A stretch of 64,000 nucleotides of DNA from Candidatus Zymogenaceae bacterium (GTDB lineage: Bacteria > Desulfobacterota > Zymogenia > Zymogenales > Zymogenaceae), in the NCBI GenBank assembly GCA_016931225.1, contig JAFGFE010000015.1, positions 2,858-66,857 on the forward strand, written 5' to 3'. Both the position numbers and the translations under genes were made by a program. Under the pieces are notes generated by a model, which saw only the letters and a list, made by a program, of their open reading frames with translations, was not told the DNA's origin and did no database searches. Numbering within the stretch: position 1 is the stretch's first letter; each line of letters starts with the position of its first letter. Positions 5,924-56,935 of the stretch are shown here, one piece after another.

Positions 5924-6460
5924 GTGAAAATCACGCGCAGAACAATTCACGGCACTCTCCTGTATATATTCAATCGAGGCGTTCTGATTATCGGGGAGAG
6001 CGGTACCGGTAAAAGCCGCATTGCCAGGGATATTCTCGGACATATGGACTTTTTCGGGCAATGCGGCTTGGTTCGTTCCGGGAGGCTTGTCGCGGACGAT
6101 ATTATAGAACTGGAGATGACATCGGAGGGCCTCGTTGGTGCGGCGCCACACACCCTCTTCGGGCTTTTGGAAATCTCGGGTGTGGGGATCATCGACGTAC
6201 GACGGGTGTTCGGCCCCTCTCTGGTTCGGCGATCATCTTCCATCGACATCATTGTACGTCTGGAGGAATCGCCGGATGTATTGACGGCCGCTCCAAAAAT
6301 GACGGTATCAATCAACTCTCACGGAGAGGAAGATATCCCGGTCATTTATATCGCTGCAGGGGTGTCCGGTGATGCGGTCGCGGCGGCGGTTATCGAACAT
6401 ATCATGATCGAGGCGGGCGTCGAGGCGCCGGTCCTCGATGAACTTGTAAAGCAGAGATGA
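5924..6460 (+). CDS. hprK: HPr kinase/phosphorylase, short form (kinase domain only)
   Basis: GTG start. Walker A 'GESGTGKS'. 178 aa, so it lacks the N-terminal domain found in Firmicutes HprK. Confidence 0.8.
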   Translation: MKITRRTIHGTLLYIFNRGVLIIGESGTGKSRIARDILGHMDFFGQCGLVRSGRLVADDIIELEMTSEGLVGAAPHTLFGLLEISGVGIIDVRRVFGPSLVRRSSSIDIIVRLEESPDVLTAAPKMTVSINSHGEEDIPVIYIAAGVSGDAVAAAVIEHIMIEAGVEAPVLDELVKQR

Positions 6461-7332
6461 CATTCAGTGCACCAAGTATACATCTCTTTATTGTGACCGG
6501 GCTTTCGGGATCGGGAAAAAGCACCGTTATCAACGCCCTGGAGGATATCGGTTTTTTCTGCATCGATAATATGCCGGTCGTACTCCTGCCGACGTTTGTG
6601 GATCTGCTCCATCAATCAAGCTGGGATATCAACAAAGTCGCCATTGTGATGGACGTGAGGGAGCGGAGGTTTTTGTCTGAGTTCCCGGACGTTTTTGAAG
6701 AACTTACGGAAAAGGGACAGCCATACCATATCATCTTTCTCGAAGCCACAGATGATATCCTGATTCGCCGGTACAAGGAAACAAGACGCTCCCATCCCAT
6801 GGCGGAAAATCCCCGGGAGGGCATCGCCCGGGAGCGAAAAGCCCTGGGCGAGCTGAAAGGCCAGGCGCATCTGATCATCGATACGTCTGATTTCACACCG
6901 CACCAGCTCAGGGACCGCATCTTCGATTATTTCAAGGAGCTCGTCCCGAAGCGTAAGCTGAGGGTGACGGTCATGTCGTTCGGGTATCGCCATGGGACCC
7001 CGTCGGAAGCGGACGTGATGATGGACGTTCGGTTTTTACCGAATCCGTTCTTCGTGGAGACGCTGAAAAAGAAGACGGGAATGGACGGGCAGGTAAAGAA
7101 ATTCGTCCTGGGAAAACAGGAGACGAGCGAATTTCTTCAGTTGTTCAAGAACCTTCTTTCGTACCTGATCCCCCGGTACGTCGAGGAGGGGAGGTCCTAT
7201 CTGACCGTGGCGTTGGGATGTACCGGAGGCATACACAGGTCGGTGGTTCTGGCGGGTGAGGTGGCTCGGTGGCTCGGAGATTCGGAAGACTGTATCATAA
7301 ACGTGGTACACAGGGATATTAACAAAAAATAA
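6457..7332 (+). CDS. rapZ: RNase adapter protein RapZ (YhbJ, P-loop NTPase)
   Basis: 'FIVTGLSGSGKSTVINALEDIGFFCIDNMP' is canonical RapZ. 291 aa. 4-bp overlap with hprK. Confidence 0.9.
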   Translation: MTFSAPSIHLFIVTGLSGSGKSTVINALEDIGFFCIDNMPVVLLPTFVDLLHQSSWDINKVAIVMDVRERRFLSEFPDVFEELTEKGQPYHIIFLEATDDILIRRYKETRRSHPMAENPREGIARERKALGELKGQAHLIIDTSDFTPHQLRDRIFDYFKELVPKRKLRVTVMSFGYRHGTPSEADVMMDVRFLPNPFFVETLKKKTGMDGQVKKFVLGKQETSEFLQLFKNLLSYLIPRYVEEGRSYLTVALGCTGGIHRSVVLAGEVARWLGDSEDCIINVVHRDINKK

Positions 7333-10051: not shown

Positions 10052-11812
10052 ATGAAGGAACTACATGGAATCGGTGTTTCTTCCGGTATCGCCATGGGGA
10101 AGGTACATCTGATAGATCGCAGTAAGGTCAAATATACCCCCCGTTTTATACGAGATGAAAACATTGATTCGGAAATCAGACGTTTCAGTCTGGCCATTGA
10201 GGATTCGTACAACCAGCTTCAGGAAGCACAGGAAAAAATATCCGAAGAGCATTTTCAGGACTTCAAGCACATTATTGAAGCGCATATGTTCATTTTGAAG
10301 GATCGAATGCTCAACAGTGAGACCATCAAGACCATCGCTGAAGAACGCGTGAACGCCGAGTGGGCGTTGAGAATGGTTCACGAAAATATCGTCAGCTTTT
10401 TCAAAAAGCTCGATGACGATTACATATCGGAACGCGTGAGCGATGTGGATTACGTCGTCGAACGGGTCATGAGAAATCTCGTGGGCAAAGAGCAGGAGAG
10501 CATAACCGGGATCAAGGAAAACGTCATCATCGTCTCTCATGATCTTTCTCCGGCGGATACCGCCCAGATTGACAGGAGCGTCATCAAGGGATTCATCACC
10601 GACATCGGCGGAAGAACGTCTCACACCGCTATTATGGCCAGGTCTCTCGAGATACCGGCGGTCGTGGGTCTTGAGTATGTCAGCGAGGAGACCAAGAGTG
10701 GAGATTACATCATCCTCGACGGCAAGAAGGGGGTTGTCGTTATCAATCCCACAGAGGAAGTCAAGGACATATACAACGAATGCCTGAAGCGATTTGAGGA
10801 GGAAGAGCGGGAGCTTCTGCTGCTCAGGGAGCTTCCCAGCATTACCACGGACAGCCACGCCGTTACGCTCATGGCGAATATCGAGATGCCCCAGGAGCTG
10901 GAATCGGTCATTGAACACGGCGCCGAGGGCATCGGCCTGTATCGAACCGAGTTTCTCTATCTGAACCGCCTGGAGCTTCCCAGTGAAGAAGATCACTTCG
11001 AGGTTTACAAGTACGTTGTGGAAAAAATTCAGCCGATGGTCACCACCATTCGGACTTTCGACCTCGGCGGAGACCGGTTCCTCTCTCCGGTTCACCTGGC
11101 CAAGGAGATGAATCCGGCGATGGGGCTTCGCGCCATCCGATTCTGTCTTCGAGAGCTGGAAATATTCAAGGATCAATTGCGAGCCATTTTGCGGGTCAGC
11201 GCGTATGGGCCGGTTCGAGTGCTGTTTCCCATGATCAGCGGTGTGGGAGAGATCAGGGAGACGAAAGTAATTCTGGATCAGGTTAAGGAGGAGTTGAAAA
11301 AACGGGGCACGCCGTTCGATGAAAACATCCAGATCGGTTCGATGATGGAGATTCCATCGGCGATGGCCATTGCGGACCTTCTGGCCAAGGAGGTGGATTT
11401 CTTCAGCATCGGTACAAACGACCTTATCCAGTATTCTCTGGCGATCGACAGGGTGAACGAGCACGTCAATTATCTGTATGAGCCGTTGCACCCTGCGGTC
11501 CTCAGGATGATAAAGGGCGTCGTCACCTCCGCCAAGGTATCGGGCGTCAACATCGCCATCTGTGGAGAGATGGCGGGCGAATCGATATATCTGCCGATAC
11601 TGCTCGGCCTGGGACTCAAAGAACTCTCCATGAACGCACTCTCCATCCTGAGGGTGAAAAATATTCTCAGAGAGATGTCCTATCAGGAATGTAAGGAGAT
11701 AACCGAGAAGGCACTCGGCTTTTCAACGGCGACGGAAATACATAATTTCGTCTTCACGAAAATGAGCGAACGGTTTCCTCACATTTTTGGACCACCGGAT
11801 CAGAATGGATAA
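10052..11812 (+). CDS. ptsI: phosphoenolpyruvate-protein phosphotransferase (Enzyme I)
   Basis: 'GGRTSHTAIMARSLEIPAVVG' phospho-His region and the PEP-utilising TIM-barrel domain. An alternative GTG start lies at 10043. Confidence 0.9.
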   Translation: MKELHGIGVSSGIAMGKVHLIDRSKVKYTPRFIRDENIDSEIRRFSLAIEDSYNQLQEAQEKISEEHFQDFKHIIEAHMFILKDRMLNSETIKTIAEERVNAEWALRMVHENIVSFFKKLDDDYISERVSDVDYVVERVMRNLVGKEQESITGIKENVIIVSHDLSPADTAQIDRSVIKGFITDIGGRTSHTAIMARSLEIPAVVGLEYVSEETKSGDYIILDGKKGVVVINPTEEVKDIYNECLKRFEEEERELLLLRELPSITTDSHAVTLMANIEMPQELESVIEHGAEGIGLYRTEFLYLNRLELPSEEDHFEVYKYVVEKIQPMVTTIRTFDLGGDRFLSPVHLAKEMNPAMGLRAIRFCLRELEIFKDQLRAILRVSAYGPVRVLFPMISGVGEIRETKVILDQVKEELKKRGTPFDENIQIGSMMEIPSAMAIADLLAKEVDFFSIGTNDLIQYSLAIDRVNEHVNYLYEPLHPAVLRMIKGVVTSAKVSGVNIAICGEMAGESIYLPILLGLGLKELSMNALSILRVKNILREMSYQECKEITEKALGFSTATEIHNFVFTKMSERFPHIFGPPDQNG

Positions 11813-24536: not shown

Positions 24537-26597
24537 CTATCTCCCGTTCTCGGCGATGTCCGTGTAGATTTCCTTCAGGGTCTCATATGAGTGCTTCGGA
24601 ATGCGATCTTTGGAGACGACTCCCTTCATGTTGTAATAGGGGACGACGTTCCCCGGAAACCAGGGGCAGTAGAAGTCGGCGAATATCCAGGGAGAAACAC
24701 CCACGATGTACTCTCGCTCACGAAACGCATTGAGGTACGTGCGGATGACATATTCCTGATATTCTTCCGAGTATGTTTTCCCCGGGCTGACGCGATCGGC
24801 CACGTAGCTCCCGTCCTCGTCCGTTCGCCCGGGGGCGGCGCTGGCGCCGAACTCGGAGAGAAACACCAGTCGGTCCGGGTGCTGTTCGTGATAGGTGTCT
24901 AGCTTCATTCCTGCGTCTTTTGCCGTGCCGTAATACCAGCCGTAATAGCTGTTGACCGACGCGATGTCGAGATAGTCGGCCGACATGCGCTTGGTATCGA
25001 AGAAGGGAATGTCATAGGTGACTTCAGCCTTCGTTACCGGGCGCGAGTCGTCGAAGGCCCTGATGACATCCCTCAGGTGGCCGTAAAAACGGCCGCCGGA
25101 TGTATACAGCGAGTAGCTCTCGTTGGAGACGAACCAGAGAACGACCGCCGGGTTGTTGATGTCCCGCTCCACCATTTCGATGAGCTGGCGACGGGTTGAG
25201 ACGACCAGGGATTCTGAATGCAACTGCTTCATCCCGAAGGTCGAGGCGGGGAACCGAAAGAGCTCCCTGCCGGTCCCGAACCAGGTGGTCCAGCCAAGGC
25301 CGACCTGGTAATGGGGGATTTCCTCGGAAACCATGATTCCCCTGTCACGACAGGCCCTGATTTCCCGGATGTCGTGGGGGTAATGGGACATCCTGATGAA
25401 ATTCGCACCCATCTCCTCTATCAGGTCGAGATCCCTGTCGATAACGGCCTCGTTCTGGGTGGCGCCAAGATACGGGTCGTCTTCGTGTTTCGATATGCCC
25501 AACAGCACCGTCTCCTCACCGTTTATCAGGAGCGCGTCATTTGTGATCTCGATGGTGCGAAAACCGGTCACCACCGACACCCGGTCATCAGACATACGGT
25601 CCTGGAGGTGGAGCTTCACGGTGTAGGTTGCGGGATCCTTCGTTGACCAGAGCCGCGGTGCGGGGATCGAGGCGCCGGCGGGATACAGCCGATATTCCCC
25701 TTCGGCAATCGGCGTATCGATGTCTATGGGATAGATCATTCCATCCGGACCGACGACCTCTCCCTCGATCGTACATTCGGTGCCGCCGGCAAGACGATGC
25801 ACGACGATAGTCATGTCCAAAGTGCCGCCGGTTTCCTCCGGGACGGCCCGCGCCACGACCTTGCACAGGTACTGTCCGGGCAGCTTCTCCAGGTACACAT
25901 CACGGTAGATGCCGCCGTATTCCCCCCAGCCTCCCTGGGTGTGGTACCTGTACTGTTTCGGGGGCAGGGTGTCGAATCTGATGCGATTGTCCGCCCGGAC
26001 GATCAGGGTGTTCGTCTCGCCGGGCCTGATGAAGTCGGTGACGTTGAAGTAAAACGGCGTGTAGCCCCCGTCCCGGTGCCCCAGGTGGTTGCCGTTGAGC
26101 CACACATCCGAGGTCAGGAGCACGCCCCGAAAGCAGAGCCGGGTGATCGGGTTGGGAGGTGACGACCCATCCGCGGTAAAGGTGAGCATGTACCAGGTCA
26201 CGCCGGTATGATGGCGATAGGGACCCTCGAATGCGTTGTACGTTGAGGGAACGGTGTAGTCCTCCCAGGAGTCGTCCGCATCCCGTATGAGGAACCATTC
26301 CTCATCCAGTCCCACCTCGTCGGGATCAAACCGCATCTTCCAGGAGCCGGAGAGATCCTGGATCGGGCGGTTGGTGTCCTCGAAGACCGTGGGGTAGGGG
26401 AGGCCGTATTCCACCAGGATGTTCGTATCCCCCACGGTGACGATGGTGAAGTCTCCGTCGCTGTCGGTATCCGGGAAGGTGTAGTCGACCCGGGGATATA
26501 CCCAGGTCAGATACAGCCATGCACAGACGACGATGACGATCGCCGCGAGAATCACAGAAAAGATTCCGCATACGATTTTCTTCACGATCGATTTCAT
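24537..26597 (-). CDS. glycoside hydrolase family 2 protein with N-terminal membrane anchor
   Basis: N-terminal TM helix, then a GH2 sugar-binding domain ('VTWYMLTF', 'VWLNGNHLGHRDGGYTPFYF'). TIM-barrel motifs 'NFIRMSHYPHD', acid/base 'WFVSNES', nucleophile 'FLSEFGA'. Confidence 0.75.
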   Translation of the reverse strand: MKSIVKKIVCGIFSVILAAIVIVVCAWLYLTWVYPRVDYTFPDTDSDGDFTIVTVGDTNILVEYGLPYPTVFEDTNRPIQDLSGSWKMRFDPDEVGLDEEWFLIRDADDSWEDYTVPSTYNAFEGPYRHHTGVTWYMLTFTADGSSPPNPITRLCFRGVLLTSDVWLNGNHLGHRDGGYTPFYFNVTDFIRPGETNTLIVRADNRIRFDTLPPKQYRYHTQGGWGEYGGIYRDVYLEKLPGQYLCKVVARAVPEETGGTLDMTIVVHRLAGGTECTIEGEVVGPDGMIYPIDIDTPIAEGEYRLYPAGASIPAPRLWSTKDPATYTVKLHLQDRMSDDRVSVVTGFRTIEITNDALLINGEETVLLGISKHEDDPYLGATQNEAVIDRDLDLIEEMGANFIRMSHYPHDIREIRACRDRGIMVSEEIPHYQVGLGWTTWFGTGRELFRFPASTFGMKQLHSESLVVSTRRQLIEMVERDINNPAVVLWFVSNESYSLYTSGGRFYGHLRDVIRAFDDSRPVTKAEVTYDIPFFDTKRMSADYLDIASVNSYYGWYYGTAKDAGMKLDTYHEQHPDRLVFLSEFGASAAPGRTDEDGSYVADRVSPGKTYSEEYQEYVIRTYLNAFREREYIVGVSPWIFADFYCPWFPGNVVPYYNMKGVVSKDRIPKHSYETLKEIYTDIAENGR

Positions 26598-26630: not shown

Positions 26631-28640
26631 CTATCTTCCGTTTGTCTTGATGTCGTGATACATCTGTGTGAGAACATCATAGGCGGCCTTCGGTTCACGC
26701 CCCGAGGTCATCACTCCCGAAGAGTGTAAGAACGGTGCCGAGTCGCCGGGATACAGACTATCTGCGAAGACGGCGGGACATACGCCGGCGATGTAATTTT
26801 TTGAACGGGCGATCTCCATATATTCCTCGATGAGCATCGCCTGGTCTTCTTCCGAGTACGTGCCGTCTGCATCAATACAGTCGAGTCCGGCCGGGACACA
26901 GAAGTCTGAAAGAAATAGGAGCCTGTCGGGATATCGCCTGTGAATACGGTCGAGGTACAGTCCCAGGTCTTCGGGGCCGCCGGCGTGGAGGTCGGAGGAA
27001 GAATCGACGGCGATCAGATCCATGGAGGGCGCCGCTCGTTTTTCGGCGTCCAGAAGGCGAATGTCATAGGTGTATTCGAACGTGCAAACCGGGCGGGTGG
27101 AATCGAACGATCGTATCACATCACGCATCCAGCCGTGGAAACGCCCCCCCTCATCGAAGAGGGTGTACGACTCAGAGCCCGCAATCCATATGATCACCGC
27201 CGGATTGTTGATGTCCCGCTCCACCATCTCGATGAGCATGCGCTGGGCCAGGGACATGAGGTGTGGGTCGTTAAGCTGGCGCATCCCGAAAGTCCGCACC
27301 GGCAGCTCGAACAGGGTCCCCTTTTTATTGTACCAGTCCACCCAGCCCATGCCGATGTTGTTGTACGGAATCTCCTCGGAGACCATGATTCCCAGGTCAC
27401 GGCACGCCCTGATTTCACGGACGTCGTGGGAGGAGTGGGCCATGCGAATGAAATTTGCGTTCATATCCTGTATCAGACCGAGGTCTTTGGCGATGTTATC
27501 AGTCATCGGCTCCGATCCCGAATCCACGACGTCCTCGTATCGAGAGACGCCCCTGATGAAGGTGTTGATGTCGTTGATGTAGACGCCCGGGTCGGTTCCG
27601 TAGCCCACGATCCGAACGGTGCGAAATCCGGTTTTCGTCTCCAGTGTTTCCACTCGACTCTTCGTCTTCAGGGTGAGCATGAGACGATAGAGCCGCGGGT
27701 GGTTCGGCGACCAGGTCTTCGGATTATCCACCTCGCACTTCAATGTGTGCAGTTCGAATTCATCGGACGATTCAAAGATGTACGATCCCAGGTCTATTTC
27801 CTCACCGTCAGGGGAGATGAGCGCTCCCGAAAGGATGTAGGGGCCGGTGAGATCGTGATTGTGGATGACCACCGAGACCGACACATCGCCTTTGTTTTTG
27901 GAGAGGGACATATCCGCCACTGCCTTACAGATGTAATGTCTCGGAATGCTTTCGAGAACGACGTCTCGATGAATGCCCCCGACACATTCCCGTTCGGGGC
28001 TTTGACGTTCCCATGTTTTTACCGGCAGTGTGTCGTAATCGGGACGATTGTCCGACCGAACAATGAGGATATTTTTATTGCGCTCAAGGTGGTCCGAGAC
28101 GTCGAAATAGAAGGGGGTGTCTCCCCCCCGGTGACCGCCCAGGTATGTGCCGTTGAGCCAGACGTCCGCGCACATGTGCACGCCGTCAAACCCGAGGCGG
28201 GTGAAGGTCTCGGTATCTGTGTTGAGATCGGATGAAAAATCGAGAAAATACCAGGTAACGCCTCGATAGTTCGAAAAAGAACCGTCGGTGCCGACGTACG
28301 ATGATGGAACGACGATGTCCATCCAGTCATCGCCGGGCTCGGTCGTGTGCTGCCACCCGTCGTCCATCCCCGTATCGTTCGGGTCCGTTTTCATCTTCCA
28401 GGTTCCGCCCAGGTTTTGAGCGGGGTAGGTCGATGCCTCAAAATCGGTTGGATAGGGGAGATTGTGATATACCAGGAGATTGATTCCGTCCACGGATTCA
28501 ATGTGATAGTCGTTCTCCGTGCTTGTGAACGGAACCGTATAATCCGCCTTTGGATATACCTTGAACAGGTGGACCAAGAAACCTGCGATGATCACCAGTG
28601 CCGCAATAACACTGACACAGAGCAGTTTTATAATCTTCAT
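26631..28640 (-). CDS. glycoside hydrolase family 2 paralog with N-terminal membrane anchor (nucleophile position Asp)
   Basis: Collinear with the upstream GH2 ('NFIRMAHSSHD', 'WIAGSES'). At the nucleophile position it reads 'FLSDFCV', Asp instead of Glu. 33-bp gap to its paralog. Confidence 0.7.
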   Translation of the reverse strand: MKIIKLLCVSVIAALVIIAGFLVHLFKVYPKADYTVPFTSTENDYHIESVDGINLLVYHNLPYPTDFEASTYPAQNLGGTWKMKTDPNDTGMDDGWQHTTEPGDDWMDIVVPSSYVGTDGSFSNYRGVTWYFLDFSSDLNTDTETFTRLGFDGVHMCADVWLNGTYLGGHRGGDTPFYFDVSDHLERNKNILIVRSDNRPDYDTLPVKTWERQSPERECVGGIHRDVVLESIPRHYICKAVADMSLSKNKGDVSVSVVIHNHDLTGPYILSGALISPDGEEIDLGSYIFESSDEFELHTLKCEVDNPKTWSPNHPRLYRLMLTLKTKSRVETLETKTGFRTVRIVGYGTDPGVYINDINTFIRGVSRYEDVVDSGSEPMTDNIAKDLGLIQDMNANFIRMAHSSHDVREIRACRDLGIMVSEEIPYNNIGMGWVDWYNKKGTLFELPVRTFGMRQLNDPHLMSLAQRMLIEMVERDINNPAVIIWIAGSESYTLFDEGGRFHGWMRDVIRSFDSTRPVCTFEYTYDIRLLDAEKRAAPSMDLIAVDSSSDLHAGGPEDLGLYLDRIHRRYPDRLLFLSDFCVPAGLDCIDADGTYSEEDQAMLIEEYMEIARSKNYIAGVCPAVFADSLYPGDSAPFLHSSGVMTSGREPKAAYDVLTQMYHDIKTNGR

Positions 28641-28678
28641 GAAAAACTCAGAGCGTCAGAAAAGATGGACGTGAATTG

Positions 28679-28696
28679 TATATATGCGTATATATG
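28679..28696. repeat. direct repeat TATATATG-CG-TATATATG in the divergent GH2/V4R promoter region
   Basis: Two 8-bp copies spaced 10 bp apart (28679-28686 and 28689-28696), about 40 bp upstream of the GH2 paralog start. TATATA is self-complementary. Confidence 0.4.
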
Positions 28697-28722
28697 ATAG
28701 GTTATAAGTCGCTTGGGGTCCC

Positions 28723-29254
28723 ATGTCAAGGGTAAAAGCCTTTCAGTCGTTGTGGAACACTCCTGTGATGCGTTTCCCTTTTGACTTTATCAAAAAATTT
28801 TGTTATAAAAAAAAAAGCATCATCAAAGAGAGAACGAAGCCGAATTCTCTGTTCCCTGTGATGCTGACTATCCTGGATGATATGATGAGGAAAAACGGTC
28901 CTCATCCCATTCTTAACATATCCGAAATGTCGACATTCAGGGATTTATATCCCCCGAATAACAAAAAACAGAAGCAAAAGTCTTCGGGCATCAGCCCCCT
29001 GATAAGTGGATTGATCGACCTTATCGGCGGAGACTGTGCTAAAAGTCCTACTGAGGAAGGCTGGTCGGCAGGAGGTCGGGCTCGCACGTAAGGATGGACC
29101 GGAACATGTGGGCATATTCGCCCGTAAGCTTGAAAAAGGTGGCACTGGGTCGGGGACATATTGCCCATGGATTCTCGGCGTACTGACATTATCCGGTGGA
29201 GGAAATCGACTGCCGGGACGCCGCTACAAAAAAGTGTGTTTTTCATATAGATAG
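28723..29254 (+). pseudogene. frameshifted, C-terminally degraded paralog of the downstream V4R-domain gene
   Basis: Frame 1 (28723-29091) matches the N-terminus of the 29356 gene ('LTILDDMMRKNGPHPILNISEMSTFRD' vs 'VTIEDVMGKNGLNAILNVSSMTKFRD'). The match continues in a +1 frame ('AGRQEVGLARKDGPEHVGIFARKLEK' vs 'AGRKGFRNVVEKSPELFGLVGIELEK'). The Cys-rich C-terminus is lost. Confidence 0.45.
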
Positions 29255-29355
29255 ATATTACCGAAACATTAGAAAGGAGGTGAACGGACGGATTCGTCTC
29301 TCAGGAATTTTTTTCGGAGTGATAGTGATTTTTTAATAATTCCTTCTCAATAGGT

Positions 29356-29997
29356 GTGAGAACTACTATGCTTGAAAAACAAAACATTCCCAACTCGCTT
29401 CTGTATATTGCGCTGGTGACGATTGAGGACGTTATGGGGAAAAACGGACTCAATGCGATTCTGAATGTCAGCTCGATGACAAAATTTCGTGATAACATCC
29501 CCCCGAACGACGCGGAACAAGTATACCCGGCAACGGATTTTTCATTCCTCGTGAAAGGATTGATTGAAGTTATAGGAGAAAAGGGCGCCCGGGCGATCAT
29601 GACCAATGCCGGACGCAAGGGATTTCGAAACGTTGTTGAAAAGAGCCCGGAGCTGTTCGGCCTGGTGGGGATCGAACTTGAGAAGATGGCCGCGGACAGG
29701 GAGCGTATCTCGACATTGCTTAATGCTATTACATACGAAACAAATCAAATATTCGGAGAGGGGCATCAGACCTTCGAGGAAGTCGACGGTTCATTTATCG
29801 TCAGCATACATCGATGCAGCTGGTGCCACAGCATAGAGAACTCAAAAACCCCTATCTGTTACGGTGAGGTGGGATTTGACGACGAGGCGGTGTTCTGGGC
29901 CACGAAAAAAAGGTACAAGGTGACGGAGACCGCCTGTCGGGCAATGGGGGACCCGGCATGTGTATTTGAGATCAAGGAAAATCAGGGTGACGACTGA
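29356..29997 (+). CDS. V4R (vinyl-4-reductase-like) domain protein, probable small-molecule sensor
   Basis: 213 aa. The C-terminal Cys pattern 'HRCSWCHS...PICYGEVGFDD...ETACRAMGDPACVFEI' matches the V4R domain signature. Confidence 0.55.
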   Translation: MRTTMLEKQNIPNSLLYIALVTIEDVMGKNGLNAILNVSSMTKFRDNIPPNDAEQVYPATDFSFLVKGLIEVIGEKGARAIMTNAGRKGFRNVVEKSPELFGLVGIELEKMAADRERISTLLNAITYETNQIFGEGHQTFEEVDGSFIVSIHRCSWCHSIENSKTPICYGEVGFDDEAVFWATKKRYKVTETACRAMGDPACVFEIKENQGDD

Positions 29998-30009
29998 ACA
30001 CAACTGAAG

Positions 30010-30023
30010 CAGGGCATTCCCTG
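30010..30023. terminator. weak hairpin between the convergent V4R gene and a hypothetical gene
   Basis: CAGGG-CATT-CCCTG. There is no clear U-tract on either strand. Confidence 0.2.
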
Positions 30024-30028
30024 ATGTG

Positions 30029-30343
30029 TCAGTCGATCTCCCTGGGAGAAACCACCTTATCCATCACCCGACGGAACTGATTGAGTTCCTTGATGATGGA
30101 AGGGTGGTTTCCTTTTTCGGAGATGAGTTTGGGAAGGTCCCGGGTTGCGTATATATGCATGGTGGCGGGGAGTCCCTTCACGTCCACAAGGATTTTTCCC
30201 TGGTCATGAAGGGATTTCGCGGCGTCAACCGCCCGGGAAAAATCGGACTGGGCGTCAAGAATACCGTCGCTGTTCTCCGACTCGAGGGAAGCAATAAGGT
30301 GAGTGAGAGAAGATCGTATGGCGTCTATGGACGATTGGGACAT
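30029..30343 (-). CDS. hypothetical protein
   Basis: Start set at the ATG for 'MSQSSIDAIR' with a GGAG ribosome-binding site; the longer ORF begins at 30397. Last gene of the dxs-tlyA-glpQ operon. No recognisable motif. Confidence 0.4.
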   Translation of the reverse strand: MSQSSIDAIRSSLTHLIASLESENSDGILDAQSDFSRAVDAAKSLHDQGKILVDVKGLPATMHIYATRDLPKLISEKGNHPSIIKELNQFRRVMDKVVSPREID

Positions 30344-30464
30344 AATGAATCTCCGCTGCATGGGTGTAGAAAAAGAGAATCCAATCTCTGCGGGCATCTT
30401 TCAGCTTTTGATGTCGGTGAGTGAAAAACGATTCAGGGTCCGAAGGAGAGAAGAAGAATTTCGC

Positions 30465-31301
30465 CTATGCCGTGCGTCTCTCTTCGAGAACGGCCAGCGC
30501 CCGTTCGGGATGGTCTGTGAAGATACCGTCAACGCCCATATCAAAGAGCCGTCGCATATCCGATTCCTCGTTGATGGTCCACACGTGTACGTGAACGCCG
30601 TATCTATGTGCGTATGAGAGAAATCGGCGGGTGACGACGGGAATGATCGATTGCCGCTCCGGGACCTGCAGAGCGGTGAAGGGATAGTCACGGATCTTTC
30701 TGTCGCACCGGGCGGATCGAACAAGTACACGCAGTACGTCTTCCTTGCACGCACCGGTGAGGGTGGTCGGTCTCTCTCTTTGAATATATCTCATCGCATC
30801 AGGCGGGAACGACGCCAATAGAAACCGATCCAGGGCGTTGTTCGATTCGAGCACGTCAAGCACAATCTTCGTGCTCTGTTCGGTTCCCGCCTTGATTTCC
30901 ATATTCACCGGGATATCCTGAAACGTCTGAACGAACTCCTCAAGGGTGGGGACCTGAACCCCCGTGCCGCGGAATGGATGCGTCGAACCATTGTCGGGAG
31001 AGAATGAATACCCTGCGTCTAAATCCTTCAGTTCCTTCAGCGTCAGGTCTTCGACATGCACGTCAACCCCGGCGGTGCGAAGGAGGCTTGGATCGTGGGC
31101 GAGCACCGGGATACCGTCTCGTGTGATGCGGGTGTCCGTCTCCAGCACGTGGGCGCCGATCTGTACCGCGGCCTGGAATGAGGGGAGGGTGTTTTCGGGA
31201 TACGTTCCCGAGGCGCCTCGATGGGCGAAAATGATCGGTCGGGGAAGACCGAAGAATGATTTCATGGGAATGGTCTTTTTGGACGCATGTTTTTTAGACA
31301 T
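30465..31301 (-). CDS. glycerophosphodiester phosphodiesterase family protein
   Basis: 'IIFAHRGASGTYPENT' (the His-Arg catalytic motif) and 'HVLETDTRITRDGIPVLAHD'. GGAG ribosome-binding site before the first ATG. Confidence 0.8.
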   Translation of the reverse strand: MSKKHASKKTIPMKSFFGLPRPIIFAHRGASGTYPENTLPSFQAAVQIGAHVLETDTRITRDGIPVLAHDPSLLRTAGVDVHVEDLTLKELKDLDAGYSFSPDNGSTHPFRGTGVQVPTLEEFVQTFQDIPVNMEIKAGTEQSTKIVLDVLESNNALDRFLLASFPPDAMRYIQRERPTTLTGACKEDVLRVLVRSARCDRKIRDYPFTALQVPERQSIIPVVTRRFLSYAHRYGVHVHVWTINEESDMRRLFDMGVDGIFTDHPERALAVLEERRTA

Positions 31302-53965: not shown

Positions 53966-54778
53966 ATGCCGGGAAACAGGCGGCATATAGAGACGCGGCG
54001 GTTTTTTCATTTCACACGATCTTTTCTGTTTCTGGTCTCTGCCTTTCTGCTGTTATCCGGATGTGAATCGGATCATACACCGAGCGAAAAACCTGAGGGG
54101 CATCTTGTTATAACCGACGACGAAATCCTTCTTACCCTGCCGCGGGAATCGACCGAGGAGCCGTATTCCACCGTATCCTCGGCACCGATAGATGAGAATA
54201 CCTTTTATGATTCGCTTTCCGATATTGGAGTCGAGAACGGGGTTCTTTCGGATGATGATTCCACATTAAAAGACGGGGATGATGGCGGCGTGACGACGAA
54301 CGAATCCCCCGATGATCGGGCGCTTTTTTCACTGCAGGTCGGGGCATTCATCTTCGATCGAAACCTGGAAAAACAGGCCGAAGAACTGGAGGAGCACGGG
54401 TTTACCCACTACGTGGATGAAACGGAGAGGGTGGTGTTGATGTTTTGTCCGATCGTATCCCGTGGACTTTCCAGGGACGGCGCGGAATCGTTCATGGAGC
54501 GATTTCCCACGGACGTCGTCGATCCGGTGATGATTCCGATGGAAAAAGGGGCGTTTGACGTCACTGCGGGGCTTTTTTATTATAGGGAGGATGCGGATGT
54601 GATCGCCGGACGCCTGAAGGATTTTGGCTATGATCCGACGATCGAAGAGAGAACGGTGGAAGTGGTGATAAAGCGATTGCGGATCGGGTATTATGAAGAA
54701 ATCGAACATGCAAAAAGTGATTCCCGGCTTTTGGAAAAACTGGGCTATGAGCCGATTATCGTGAAAGTAGAGAAGTGA
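53966..54778 (+). CDS. SPOR-domain lipoprotein (two SPOR-like repeats)
   Basis: Lipobox 'LLLSGC'. Two 'F/YSLQVGAF' / 'RLRIGYY' SPOR-like beta-alpha repeats in the C-terminal half. Start set at the internal ATG (MPGNRRH...); the ORF begins at 53867. Confidence 0.5.
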   Translation: MPGNRRHIETRRFFHFTRSFLFLVSAFLLLSGCESDHTPSEKPEGHLVITDDEILLTLPRESTEEPYSTVSSAPIDENTFYDSLSDIGVENGVLSDDDSTLKDGDDGGVTTNESPDDRALFSLQVGAFIFDRNLEKQAEELEEHGFTHYVDETERVVLMFCPIVSRGLSRDGAESFMERFPTDVVDPVMIPMEKGAFDVTAGLFYYREDADVIAGRLKDFGYDPTIEERTVEVVIKRLRIGYYEEIEHAKSDSRLLEKLGYEPIIVKVEK

Positions 54779-55836
54779 AAATCAAACTCTCAAAGGAAGC
54801 GCTGAAATTCGTTCAACCGAACTCTCCCAGACAGGTCAAGCTCATGGCGGCCTCGGGATCGATCCCGCTCAATCCGAAAGAGCTCGTCGTGGTGCTGTAT
54901 GTATTGTGCACCGACAAGGATGTGGAGATCAAAAAAAAGGCGATTCAGACACTCAGAACATTCTCAAAAAAGCTGATCGTCAATGTAATGGATGACAATC
55001 TTCATCCGGGCATTATAGATTTTCTTGTTCGATATCATGTAGACAGCCGCTCCTTCTATGAGAAGGCCGTTTTCAATAAAAACACGTCGGAAAAAACCAT
55101 TTTGTTTCTGGCTTCGCTTACCGATCGCGACCTGTTGGAGCTGATCATCTCCAACCAGGAACGGTTACTGCAATCAAGGCTTCTGTATGACACACTTATC
55201 AAGAATGAGGCGGTTTCCGGCGCACTGAGGAGCAAATTAGTGGAGCTGGTGGAGGGACGGTATGTCGCAGACTCCCAGGTGGAAAAAATGCCTGTGGAAA
55301 TCGAGCGTCAAAAAACGGAAGATGACACGGAAGACGAGTCGGAGGATCTGGCCGACCGGGAGACGGAAGAGACTCCGAAAGAGGGCGAGGACGAGGAAAG
55401 TCAAGAAGGGGACGATGCCGATCTCAACCTTGACCAGAAAATCAGAAAGATGTCCGTGGCGGAAAGAATCAGATACGCCTCTCTCGGGAACAAGGAGGCA
55501 CGTACTCTTCTTTTGAGAGATGCCAGCAGGACGGTCATTAGAGCGGTTATGAACAGCCCGAAGCTGACAGAGGAGGAGGTCATTGCGATCGCCAAATCGA
55601 AACAGAGCAATGATGAAGCCGTACGAATGGTAACCAGAAATAAGGAATGGATGAAGATATACGCGGTGAAACACGGGCTTGTGAGCAACCCGAAAACACC
55701 AACGGGCATCGCAATGAGGCTTATTCCATATTTGAACGTAAAAGATATAAAAGAGATTGCGAAGAGCAAGAACGTACCGGGCGTTATAGCAAATACGGCG
55801 AAAAAGGCGTTGCAGAGCAAGGAAAAGAAACACTAA
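54775..55836 (+). CDS. hypothetical protein with 'NPKTP/NSPK'-capped helical repeats and a central acidic linker, candidate partner of the downstream MglA-like GTPase
   Basis: GTG start overlapping the upstream stop (GTGA). Repeats at both termini ('PNSPRQVKLMAASG', 'LNPKELVVVLY', 'MNSPKLTEEEVIAIAK', 'SNPKTPTGIAMRLI'). Acidic block 'EDDTEDESEDLADRETEE'. Confidence 0.45.
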   Translation: MKIKLSKEALKFVQPNSPRQVKLMAASGSIPLNPKELVVVLYVLCTDKDVEIKKKAIQTLRTFSKKLIVNVMDDNLHPGIIDFLVRYHVDSRSFYEKAVFNKNTSEKTILFLASLTDRDLLELIISNQERLLQSRLLYDTLIKNEAVSGALRSKLVELVEGRYVADSQVEKMPVEIERQKTEDDTEDESEDLADRETEETPKEGEDEESQEGDDADLNLDQKIRKMSVAERIRYASLGNKEARTLLLRDASRTVIRAVMNSPKLTEEEVIAIAKSKQSNDEAVRMVTRNKEWMKIYAVKHGLVSNPKTPTGIAMRLIPYLNVKDIKEIAKSKNVPGVIANTAKKALQSKEKKH

Positions 55837-55852: not shown

Positions 55853-56935
55853 ATGGCACTGATTAACTATGCAAATAAAGAGATAAACGCCAAGATTGTC
55901 TATTATGGTCCCGGGCTTTCGGGAAAGACGACGAACATTCAGTTTATCCATTCAAAGCTGAAACCGGAACATCGTGGAAAGCTGATCACTCTGCCCACTC
56001 AGACCGACAGGACGCTCTTTTTCGATTTTTTGCCGGTTGAAATACCGAACGTCAAGGGATTTACCACACGGTTCCACTTGTATACGGTTCCGGGACAGGT
56101 TTTCTATAACGCCACCAGGAAGATGGTTCTCAAGGGTGTCGACGGTGTGGTATTCGTCGCCGATTCCCAGGTCGAGAAATTGGACGATAACATCGAGAGC
56201 CTCAAGAACCTCGATGAGAACCTCCAGGAATACGGCAAGTCCATCAAGGCTCTTCCCCTCGTTATTCAGTACAACAAACGGGACCTGAAAAACATCAGCA
56301 AGATCATCGATTTGACGAAACAAATCAATCCATTGGGATATCCTTCCTTCGAAGCGATCGCGACAGAGGGAAAGGGAGTGATGGAAACCCTGGCCGCCAT
56401 TTCACGTCAAGTACTCAAGCATCTGAAAGAATCCTACGACTCTCAGAAAATTCTGCGCATGTCCGAAGAACATGCAAAGATTATCGGGAAGGAGAAAGCA
56501 CAACAAGTTGTCACGGAAGAGGTGGGGCAGGCGGATCGGTCATCCGTCATGCTTGGCGGCGGTGGATTGACAAATGGTATTGATATTAATAAAGTGAACT
56601 CAGTTATCGATGATCGGATAGACAGGAAGGACGATCAGCTTGGGGTGATGGGGGAATTCGATAACAACAACGATTCGACCGCCGGTGCTGCTTCAGATTC
56701 GGCGCCGGCTCCCGGCGGGGCGGCGGCCGAGACGGCCACCCCGCAACCGGGCGACTTCAAAACCCCAAGGGAGGCTGAACATGTCGAGTTGGTTCTTGGG
56801 GGAGAGATAGAGCGGATGGGTGTCAGTACATTCAAAATACCATTGACATTTCAGGTCGATGCCATAAAAAAAGACATCGTATTGAACATTTCCGTTCAAA
56901 TTACCGACAGTGAAAAGGACCGGGACATCTTTTAA
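55853..56935 (+). CDS. MglA-family small GTPase with ~170-aa C-terminal extension
   Basis: Residues 1-190 are collinear with MglA ('KIVYYGPGLSGKTTN', 'TDRTLFFDFLP', 'YTVPGQVFY', 'VIQYNKRDL'). A Gly/Ala/Ser-rich linker and a ~55-aa beta-rich terminal module follow. Confidence 0.8.
   Translation: MALINYANKEINAKIVYYGPGLSGKTTNIQFIHSKLKPEHRGKLITLPTQTDRTLFFDFLPVEIPNVKGFTTRFHLYTVPGQVFYNATRKMVLKGVDGVVFVADSQVEKLDDNIESLKNLDENLQEYGKSIKALPLVIQYNKRDLKNISKIIDLTKQINPLGYPSFEAIATEGKGVMETLAAISRQVLKHLKESYDSQKILRMSEEHAKIIGKEKAQQVVTEEVGQADRSSVMLGGGGLTNGIDINKVNSVIDDRIDRKDDQLGVMGEFDNNNDSTAGAASDSAPAPGGAAAETATPQPGDFKTPREAEHVELVLGGEIERMGVSTFKIPLTFQVDAIKKDIVLNISVQITDSEKDRDIF

Follow-up and report, generated by a model that had tools for sequence, protein, structure and literature searches.

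A decayed and an intact copy in a tandem pair of V4R-domain genes from a Candidatus Zymogenaceae bacterium

The 64,000-nucleotide stretch of contig JAFGFE010000015.1 (Candidatus Zymogenaceae bacterium) analysed here, hereafter the window, carries on its forward strand a tandem pair of genes for V4R-domain proteins: an upstream remnant, psi-V4R_up, followed by an intact gene, V4R_down. The remnant is a true pseudogene with multiple lesions that has been drifting for a considerable time; it can be attributed neither to an assembly slip of one base nor to recoding. Taken as a whole, the locus is very probably a case of ordinary loss after duplication, in which the proximal copy of a tandem pair decayed to a pseudogene and the distal copy stayed intact. 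V4R (COG1719) is a 'predicted hydrocarbon-binding' fold related to Bet3 and H-NOX, and standalone V4R proteins are the presumed prokaryotic ancestors of the Bet3 subunits of TRAPP; to our knowledge they have no established function. The remnant sits between the intact V4R open reading frame (ORF) and a divergent gene of glycoside hydrolase family 2 (GH2) that starts at 28640 on the minus strand (Table 1). The initial annotation of the window had described duplicated V4R genes divergent from a GH2 pair. Both parts hold: the upstream copy is homologous to the distal one in tblastn searches, the distal copy matches Pfam family PF02830, and the coordinates and strands of the two GH2 genes are those of a divergently transcribed pair.

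The decayed proximal copy

A tblastn search with the intact V4R_down protein against 28601..29400 gave a match of 38% identity over 79 amino acids (aa) (E 1e-17), followed by weaker pieces in two other frames of the upstream copy. Contigs with homologous loci are numbered here with the prefix L. The intact upstream ortholog from L003 matched the remnant at 65% identity over 71 aa (E 5e-25). The syntenic metagenome contigs were found by exact-protein look-up of the closest homologs (84-89% identity) and share with the window the gene order GH2_dist, GH2_prox, divergent V4R, V4R, small ORF, GDPD, tlyA and dxs. An intact V4R gene of 203-207 aa occupies the position of the remnant in seven of them (L003, L004, L005, L006, L007, L008 and L015), so that the search for an intact first copy at orthologous loci, which had been proposed with the initial annotation, has been successful.

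Alignment with three intact orthologs reveals about nine lesions in the remnant. Both alternative start codons of the orthologs are lost (ATC at 28819-21, AGA at 28831-33), and a 24-bp deletion at 28811/12 takes out the GGGGG ribosome-binding stretch. Insertions of one A at 29041, one T at 29131 and two bases, CA, at 29166-67 follow. A deletion of 179 bp after 29189 has cost the remnant three of its five conserved Cys codons, those of the CxxC pair and of the third Cys; further on, ATAG is duplicated (+4 bp) at 29247-50 and the stop codon TAA has become TTA at 29269-71. The last Glu-x2-Cys-x7-Cys stretch (VEEIDCRDAATKKCVFHI) is still legible in a third frame: the final tblastn piece of the remnant reads YPVEEIDCRDAATKKCVFHI, and its counterpart in the intact V4R_down is YKVTETACRAMGDPACVFEI. 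The pseudogene fragments have no match in Pfam. The proximal copy is thus disrupted, as had been noticed from the sequence alone, though in a different manner. Instead of a single 1-nt slip near 29065, there is a slip at about 29041, some 25 nt further upstream, which is one of many lesions. The Cys motif was said to be lost, and this is correct for the CxxC pair and the third Cys, which are deleted, but not for the last Glu-x2-Cys-x7-Cys stretch. The copy likewise does not simply degenerate before its Cys-rich half: it suffered the 179-bp deletion, with a later stretch surviving in the third frame.

Substitutions tell the same story as the lesions. The divergence of the remnant at the first, second and third codon positions is 0.21/0.24/0.36, against 0.10-0.12/0.04-0.06/0.34-0.44 in functional comparisons of either paralog, so that substitutions at positions 1 and 2 are 2-5 times commoner than in functional copies. 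Each of the three segments that survive shows this excess, the first 70 codons among them (0.20/0.20/0.31 versus 0.11/0.07/0.41 for functional orthologs). The DNA of the remnant is 73% identical to L003, and that of the flanking intergenic region 72.5%. Intact orthologs elsewhere, multiple disabling lesions and relaxed codon constraint therefore coincide, as expected of a pseudogene. The proximal gene, intact in the sister lineages inspected, was inactivated in the genome of the window and has since drifted neutrally for a substantial part of the time that separates it from these lineages.

It is extremely unlikely that the disruption is an artefact of assembly or sequencing and that the genome really has two intact tandem V4R genes. 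The window does seem to derive from a metagenome assembly, and two of the small insertions, those at 29041 and 29131, lengthen or border short runs of bases; yet the 179-bp and 24-bp deletions, the substituted start and stop codons and the 4-bp duplication are unlike base-calling errors, divergence of the non-synonymous type is raised along the entire remnant, and the flanking genes are clean ORFs. A search of metagenome contigs for the junction of the 179-bp deletion (GTACTGACATTATCCGGTGGAGG) gave no match; exact-protein look-up then gave a contig of the Logan assembly of SRR13394437 that is 100% identical to the window across the locus (6,505 bp). Identity between two public assemblies made with different assemblers renders an assembler error unlikely.

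The ORF list of the window holds a residual ORF of 122 aa that overlaps the N-terminal part of the remnant. It is composed of about 32 codons of translated promoter and leader and about 75 N-terminal codons of the dead V4R copy, and the +1 frameshift provides the stop at which it terminates. Through loss of 1 bp at 28762 it runs past the stop that closes this frame after 20 codons in the orthologs. No Pfam match was obtained for it, and its ATG (28723) lies upstream of the predicted V4R promoter (-35 box at 28781-86), so that the native transcript would not contain it. We conclude that the 122-aa ORF is a chance fusion, a by-product of decay. The conserved 20-codon upstream ORF that starts from the same, invariant, ATG was also considered and rejected as coding, because L003 and L006 differ from each other there mostly in the first and second codon positions; the conservation around this ATG is explained by a minus-strand -35 box that lies there.

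Could the 122-aa ORF nevertheless be a new functional gene, with a truncated product which has the N-terminal helices for dimerisation in common with V4R and acts as a modulator of the intact paralog, for instance as a dominant-negative or capping partner? The frame is open, starts with ATG and corresponds to the first long helix plus the beginning of the second one in the AlphaFold2 (AF2) model of the intact paralog, and the dimer interface of PoxR and TRAPPC3 is formed by N-terminal helices (PMC10933270). We consider this very unlikely: besides the position of the ATG outside the native transcript, upstream of a conserved promoter, the native ribosome-binding site is deleted, constraint is already relaxed in codons 1-70, and the fragment, apart from being devoid of a Pfam match, has lost the entire beta-sheet and zinc half of the fold. 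The region 28723..29271 is therefore better annotated as a pseudogene than as a 122-aa hypothetical protein.

The intact V4R protein and its relatives

The ORF of V4R_down is open over 29356..29997, and the orthologs all start at ATG 29368 (MLEKQ), which gives a protein of 209 aa. Residues 148-207 match positions 2-61 of the 62 of the Pfam V4R model (49.2 bits, E 5.7e-13; the gathering cutoff is 31 bits), and the recognition of the distal gene as a V4R gene in the initial annotation is thereby confirmed. The 83 homologs are all of about 205-212 aa, all carry PF02830, and the closest is 89% identical; many bear the Joint Genome Institute (JGI) name 'predicted hydrocarbon binding protein'. In alignments of 64-66 homologs C150, C153, C164, E187, C190 and C198 are invariant. 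For the family, conserved glycine doublets have been described in helices alpha2 and alpha5 (Podar et al. 2008); in V4R_down G70/G73, G82/G85 and G166/G169 are conserved, but as G-x2-G, and they may or may not correspond to the Bet3 motifs M1 and M2. Codon-position divergence from L003 is 0.10/0.06/0.34, and V4R_down is under purifying selection. The locus thus presents a natural loss of one tandem paralog, in which the proximal copy is dispensable in this lineage and the distal one is still selected.

The AF2 model of V4R_down (predicted local distance difference test, pLDDT, 91.7; predicted template modelling score, pTM, 0.89) has helices at residues 9-34, 55-92, 94-106, 110-129 and 165-179 and strands at 134-139, 142-147, 183-189 and 198-204, i.e. 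the helices on a four-stranded antiparallel sheet that typify the Bet3/V4R alpha-beta fold. Foldseek related the model with probability 1.0 to H-NOX, PoxR, MopR, DmpR and Thor-TRAPPC3. The sequence alone found nothing in the PDB at E <= 1; a profile of 66 family members reached the entries for PoxR (5FRU), MJ1460 (2OSD) and MopR (5KBE). In this profile match the series C164-x22-E187-x2-C190-x7-C198 aligns with PoxR and MopR, and its spacing (23/3/8) is that of XylR C149/E172/C175/C183, the counterparts of which are reported to bind zinc in PoxR, MopR and DmpR (bioRxiv 10.1101/2021.01.17.427014). Judged from its sequence, V4R_down therefore has the Cys...Glu-x2-Cys-x7-Cys pattern of a putative zinc site. 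Thor-TRAPPC3 and PoxR are zinc-binding dimers with an interface of N-terminal helices and enclosed ligand cavities (PMC10933270).

Among known systems, the A domains of the sigma-54 activators XylR, DmpR, MopR and PoxR (PDB 5FRU, 5KBE, 6IY8) share the fold of V4R_down (TM-score about 0.5) and exactly its Cys-x22-Glu-x2-Cys-x7-Cys ligand spacing. They are themselves dimers with a buried pocket for aromatic effectors. Unlike these activators, V4R_down has neither AAA+ nor helix-turn-helix (HTH) output domains nor a Pfam XylR_N match, and identity is 14-18%; the likeness covers fold and zinc spacing, and nothing points to an aromatic ligand. MJ1460 of Methanocaldococcus jannaschii (PDB 2OSD/2OSO) resembles V4R_down as a single domain of about 160-210 aa with a C-terminal V4R motif ending E-x2-C-x7-C-x-F. 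The similarity is marginal, however (E 0.02 with the profile, over the C-terminal 44 residues only), and the window clade has in addition the invariant CxxC and a longer N-terminal helical part. Bet3/TRAPPC3 and the Asgard Thor-TRAPPC3 (PDB 7YH2, 7YH3) have an alpha/beta fold homologous to that of V4R_down (PMC2253512, PMC10933270). The archaeal proteins bind zinc via Cys, and paralogs act as homo- or heterodimers, which parallels the tandem pairs in the window clade, L012, L013 and L025. Unlike them, V4R_down is a bacterial cytoplasmic protein with no TRAPP, longin or GTPase partners at its locus, and the positions of the zinc ligands differ (four Cys in Thor-TRAPPC3).

The best full-length structural matches are H-NOX domains (Nostoc, PDB 2O09; soluble guanylate cyclase (sGC) beta1), with E 1e-6, about 200 aligned columns and a TMq of 0.6, the N-terminal helical subdomain included. 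Hallmarks of H-NOX are the proximal heme-ligating His and the YxSxR propionate-binding motif. The family alignments contain no invariant or nearly invariant His, and the 209-aa protein no YxSxR, so the likeness is one of fold and heme binding is unlikely; the V4R_down family has Cys/Glu metal ligands instead. In NCBIfam, V4R_down gave sub-threshold matches to MsvR over the V4R part (NF053755; 26.9 bits versus an equivalog cutoff of 220) and to BchJ over its full length (TIGR02019; 22 versus 74.3). Unlike the setting of BchJ, there are no photosynthesis genes near V4R_down. The V4R domain of MthMsvR has five Cys, a CxxC and three further conserved ones, and a redox-sensitive DNA binding (PMC3729527). 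The Cys pattern of V4R_down is the same, and with the redox response of MthMsvR it leaves room for a redox role of C150/C153. The HTH domain of MsvR is absent from V4R_down.

No DNA-binding or enzymatic domain was seen in V4R_down with Pfam or in the AF2 model, so that any action as a sensor or carrier would be exerted in trans, on a partner. We infer that V4R_down is most likely an alpha/beta domain, stabilised by zinc and folded around a buried hydrophobic cavity, which would dimerise through its N-terminal helices and bind a small, probably hydrophobic, ligand. The paralogs may be heterodimeric in the relatives, and the window strain would then manage with a homodimer. Several points weigh against the picture given so far. 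On the side of the pseudogene, the reads behind the Logan contig are probably those of the window, so that it is no independent sample of the population, and the contig of the nearest relative, L001 (89%; ERZ27252236, contig k141_1672712), begins only 36 bp ahead of the gene and is without upstream sequence, so that the timing of the loss is only loosely bounded. On the side of the protein, zinc binding and dimerisation are deduced from distant homologs (14-18% identity in structural alignments); the best Foldseek matches are H-NOX and not PoxR, which leaves a small chance of a cofactor-binding role; the extra invariant C150-x2-C153 pair could be a second metal site or an MsvR-like redox switch; and we know of no ligand, partner or phenotype for the standalone V4R proteins of the window clade. 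For annotation, the 209-aa gene is better named a standalone V4R-domain, probably zinc-binding, protein. Beyond annotation the finding matters little. The family is known but functionally obscure.

Intergenic region and neighbouring genes

The invariant block between the divergent genes can be accounted for by two predicted back-to-back promoters of the sigma-70 type, one for the V4R unit and one for GH2_prox (Table 1), both conserved in L003 and L006. The latter would explain the invariant CATGTCAAGG. The former reads TTGACT-N17-TATAAG in the orthologs and is still intact upstream of the pseudogene. Since this promoter survives, the distal gene probably now has the dead copy as no more than a long 5' leader and would be co-transcribed with it. 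A consensus scan for promoters and terminators found neither of the two conserved promoters, the -10 hexamers of which both are without the final T; its single promoter match (28606-28634) was disregarded because it lies inside the GH2 coding region. A sigma-54 promoter in the conserved TGGAACAC block was rejected because the GG/GC spacing is unsuitable. An Rfam scan of 28300..30600 at E <= 1 gave no match, hence no known riboswitch or small RNA in the conserved intergenic block.

A direct repeat had been proposed as a possible operator in this region. The repeat exists: TATATATG-N2-TATATATG occurs at 28679-28696 as one pattern match against 0.02 expected by chance. L003 and L006 carry a single copy, with an alignment gap of 8 columns, and in the window the repeat would occupy roughly positions +1 to +16 of the GH2 transcript, just past the predicted -10 box, in the 5' leader. 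These sequences make the TATATATG repeat a tandem duplication of 10 bp peculiar to the window, and not a conserved operator.

GH2_prox departs from the canonical catalytic motifs, as an alignment with GH2_dist, with its ortholog in L006 and with the only GH2 of L010 shows: the acid/base NE is changed to SE, and the nucleophile motif SEFG to SDFC (Glu to Asp). The window protein and the L006 ortholog have both changes in common, and the window protein alone has its aromatic YYGWYYG replaced by SSSDLHAG. The NCBIfam beta-glucuronidase match of GH2_prox ends at residue 524. By these motifs GH2_prox may be a pseudo-enzyme or have an altered activity. A conceivable reading is that each V4R gene serves one divergent GH2 gene as its own regulator or partner, in two modules (V4R_up with GH2_prox, V4R_down with GH2_dist); the repeat at 28678-28696 would be the operator, and the inner module would be disappearing as a whole. 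In its favour, GH2 and V4R are arranged divergently both in the window clade and in L010, which is more distant; both inner genes are the faster-evolving paralogs; and GH2_prox is without the canonical nucleophile, the NE asparagine and, in the window, YYGWYYG. We nevertheless hold such a partnership to be unlikely. V4R_down has no DNA-binding domain and the repeat is not conserved; the orthologous V4R gene of L011, L017 and L018 adjoins hisB with no GH2, and the V4R genes of the outgroup clade lie in aminotransferase-permease-transketolase clusters. The GH2 proteins, moreover, are membrane-anchored and probably extracytoplasmic, whereas V4R has no signal peptide, and the Glu-to-Asp change is found also in L006, where V4R_up is intact.

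A further scheme, which is speculative and which we think very improbable, would make the tandem V4R paralogs obligate heterodimeric ligand sensors or carriers (compare TRAPP Bet3 and the alpha/beta H-NOX of sGC), each perhaps paired with one membrane-anchored GH2. The inner GH2 would then be a catalytically altered pseudo-enzyme or receptor, and the inner V4R/GH2 module would be in the course of being dismantled in the window. The inconsistent linkage with GH2 weakens this scheme, and plain loss of a duplicate remains our preferred account of the locus.

The initial annotation had also connected the V4R proteins with Roadblock/LC7 proteins and with an MglA-like GTPase encoded in the window. 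The latter is a GTPase-like protein of 360 aa with a P-loop and an NKxD motif and weak Arf and Gtr1/RagA matches; its length exceeds that of a usual small GTPase, and no family is assigned to its C-terminal ~200 residues. The 353-aa ORF upstream of its gene (54775-55836) has no family match. In distant Anaerolineae relatives (33% identity; L022-L024) a Robl_LC7 gene directly precedes V4R and a response-regulator gene follows it. The association with Roadblock is thus real for part of the family, but on present evidence nothing ties Roadblock or GTPase to the window locus. The GTPase-like gene lies 26 kb from the V4R genes with about 25 unrelated, housekeeping genes in between; Robl_LC7 had no match among the 33 window ORFs scanned against Pfam; and no GTPase or Roadblock neighbour was seen at the V4R loci inspected in the window clade and the single-copy clade (about 12; L001-L009, L015-L018). 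That the V4R proteins act with the GTPase of the window in an NTPase regulation of the Roadblock/MglA type is hence highly improbable, in spite of the Anaerolineae clusters and of the matches of the 360-aa protein.

The neighbours of the V4R genes in the window are GH2, hisB, a small ORF without family match, GDPD, tlyA and dxs; the tandem pair of standalone V4R genes lies between hisB/GH2 and GDPD-tlyA-dxs and would be specific to the lineage. The small ORF has no match in Pfam or NCBIfam and is found at the equivalent position, with 66-72% identity, in the nine window-clade loci that reach that far. The G+C content over 28500-30400 (intergenic region, pseudogene and intact V4R) is 0.39-0.53, and about 0.56-0.62 in the flanking GH2 and tlyA/dxs genes.

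Table 1. Features of the V4R locus, of the rest of the window and of related loci (coordinates without a locus number refer to the window)
Feature	Position	Strand	Basis or remark
psi-V4R_up, pseudogene of the promoter-proximal V4R paralog	28819..29271	+	DNA alignment with intact orthologs L003, L005, L006
V4R_down, intact distal V4R paralog, 209 aa	29368..29997	+	Pfam PF02830, homologs, AF2 model
Residual 122-aa ORF	28723..29091	+	ORF list; overlaps N-terminal part of psi-V4R_up
Predicted sigma-70-type promoter of the V4R unit	28781..28809	+	TTGACT (28781-28786)-N17-TATAAA (28804-28809); sequence and ortholog alignment
Predicted sigma-70-type promoter of the proximal GH2 gene	28701..28729	-	TTGACA (28729-28724)-N17-TATAAC (28706-28701); sequence and invariant alignment columns
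Direct repeat, GTATATATG x2, period 10	28678..28696		Repeat search and pattern search
GH2_prox, 669 aa, N-terminal membrane anchor	26631..28640	-	Pfam GH2 domains
GH2_dist, 686 aa, canonical NE and EFG motifs, beta-glucuronidase-like over full length	24537..26597	-	Pfam, alignment, NCBIfam
Small ORF, 104-122 aa	30029-30397	-	Convergent with V4R_down
GTPase-like protein, 360 aa, P-loop and NKxD motif	55853..56935	+	Weak Arf and Gtr1/RagA Pfam matches (24 bits)
Fer4-nitroreductase genes	L002:8763-9653; L017:1618-2490; L018:4844-5716; L019:996-2030	same as V4R	Locus inspection
Robl_LC7 (123 aa), V4R (211 aa), response-regulator protein (284 aa), GT2 glycosyltransferase	L022:5616-8235 (also L023, L024)	same strand	No visible GTPase gene
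Tandem V4R in clusters of class-III aminotransferase(s), APC amino-acid permease and split transketolase	L012:2871-4156; L013:4497-6621, ~10950-11520; L021:6001-6615	same strand	Candidatus Zymogenus, Thermodesulfobacteriota, related metagenome-assembled genomes

V4R loci in related genomes

A scan of genome collections placed the wider group in metagenome-assembled genomes (MAGs) of uncultured 'delta proteobacterium' and Thermodesulfobacteriota and in Candidatus Zymogenus. In the next clade out (57-65% identity) only one V4R gene occupies this chromosomal position, between hisB and GDPD-tlyA-dxs. One divergent GH2 gene accompanies it in L010, and none in L011, L017 and L018, where V4R adjoins hisB. 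A ferredoxin (Fer4)-nitroreductase fusion gene follows V4R on the same strand in L010, L017, L018 and L019, always in this single-copy clade, and is absent from the window clade. In L010 the single V4R protein shows 63% identity with V4R_down and 53% with V4R_up, and the single GH2 protein 52% with GH2_dist and 45% with GH2_prox, so that both inner genes, V4R_up and GH2_prox, are the faster-evolving duplicates. A neighbour-joining tree put the 'up' clade outside a group of 'down' and single-copy orthologs; this was not relied on for dating the duplication, since node support was not returned and long-branch effects are likely. On the 722-kb MAG contig of L002/L010 the tlyA ortholog (~12130-12980 in L002 coordinates) matches the TlyA of the window in three pieces in different frames, where gene calling yielded no more than a 119-aa FtsJ fragment; a frameshifted gene or indel errors of long reads are possible.

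Members of the outgroup clade (41-47% identity) have between one and three V4R genes in tandem, within clusters with aminotransferase, APC permease and split transketolase genes; L012 has a pair and L013 a triple. We know of no description of this recurrent context. Given such diverse neighbourhoods, the link with GH2 appears local and not defining for the family. The tandem pairs catalogued here and their varied contexts (GH2, Fer4-nitroreductase, aminotransferase-permease-transketolase, Roadblock-response regulator) may help in choosing a tractable system in which to look for a ligand. The two V4R genes of L025 (6001-6630 and 6627-7235) overlap by 4 nt, an arrangement that suggests translational coupling and a heteromeric product. 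Bet3-family proteins form heterodimers (PMC2253512), and by analogy the recurrence of tandem V4R paralogs is consistent with hetero-oligomers of the same kind. The L025 pair (6001-7235) is situated downstream of genes for a GAF-histidine kinase, a response regulator, a T2SSE-type ATPase, an HTH protein and an acetyltransferase.

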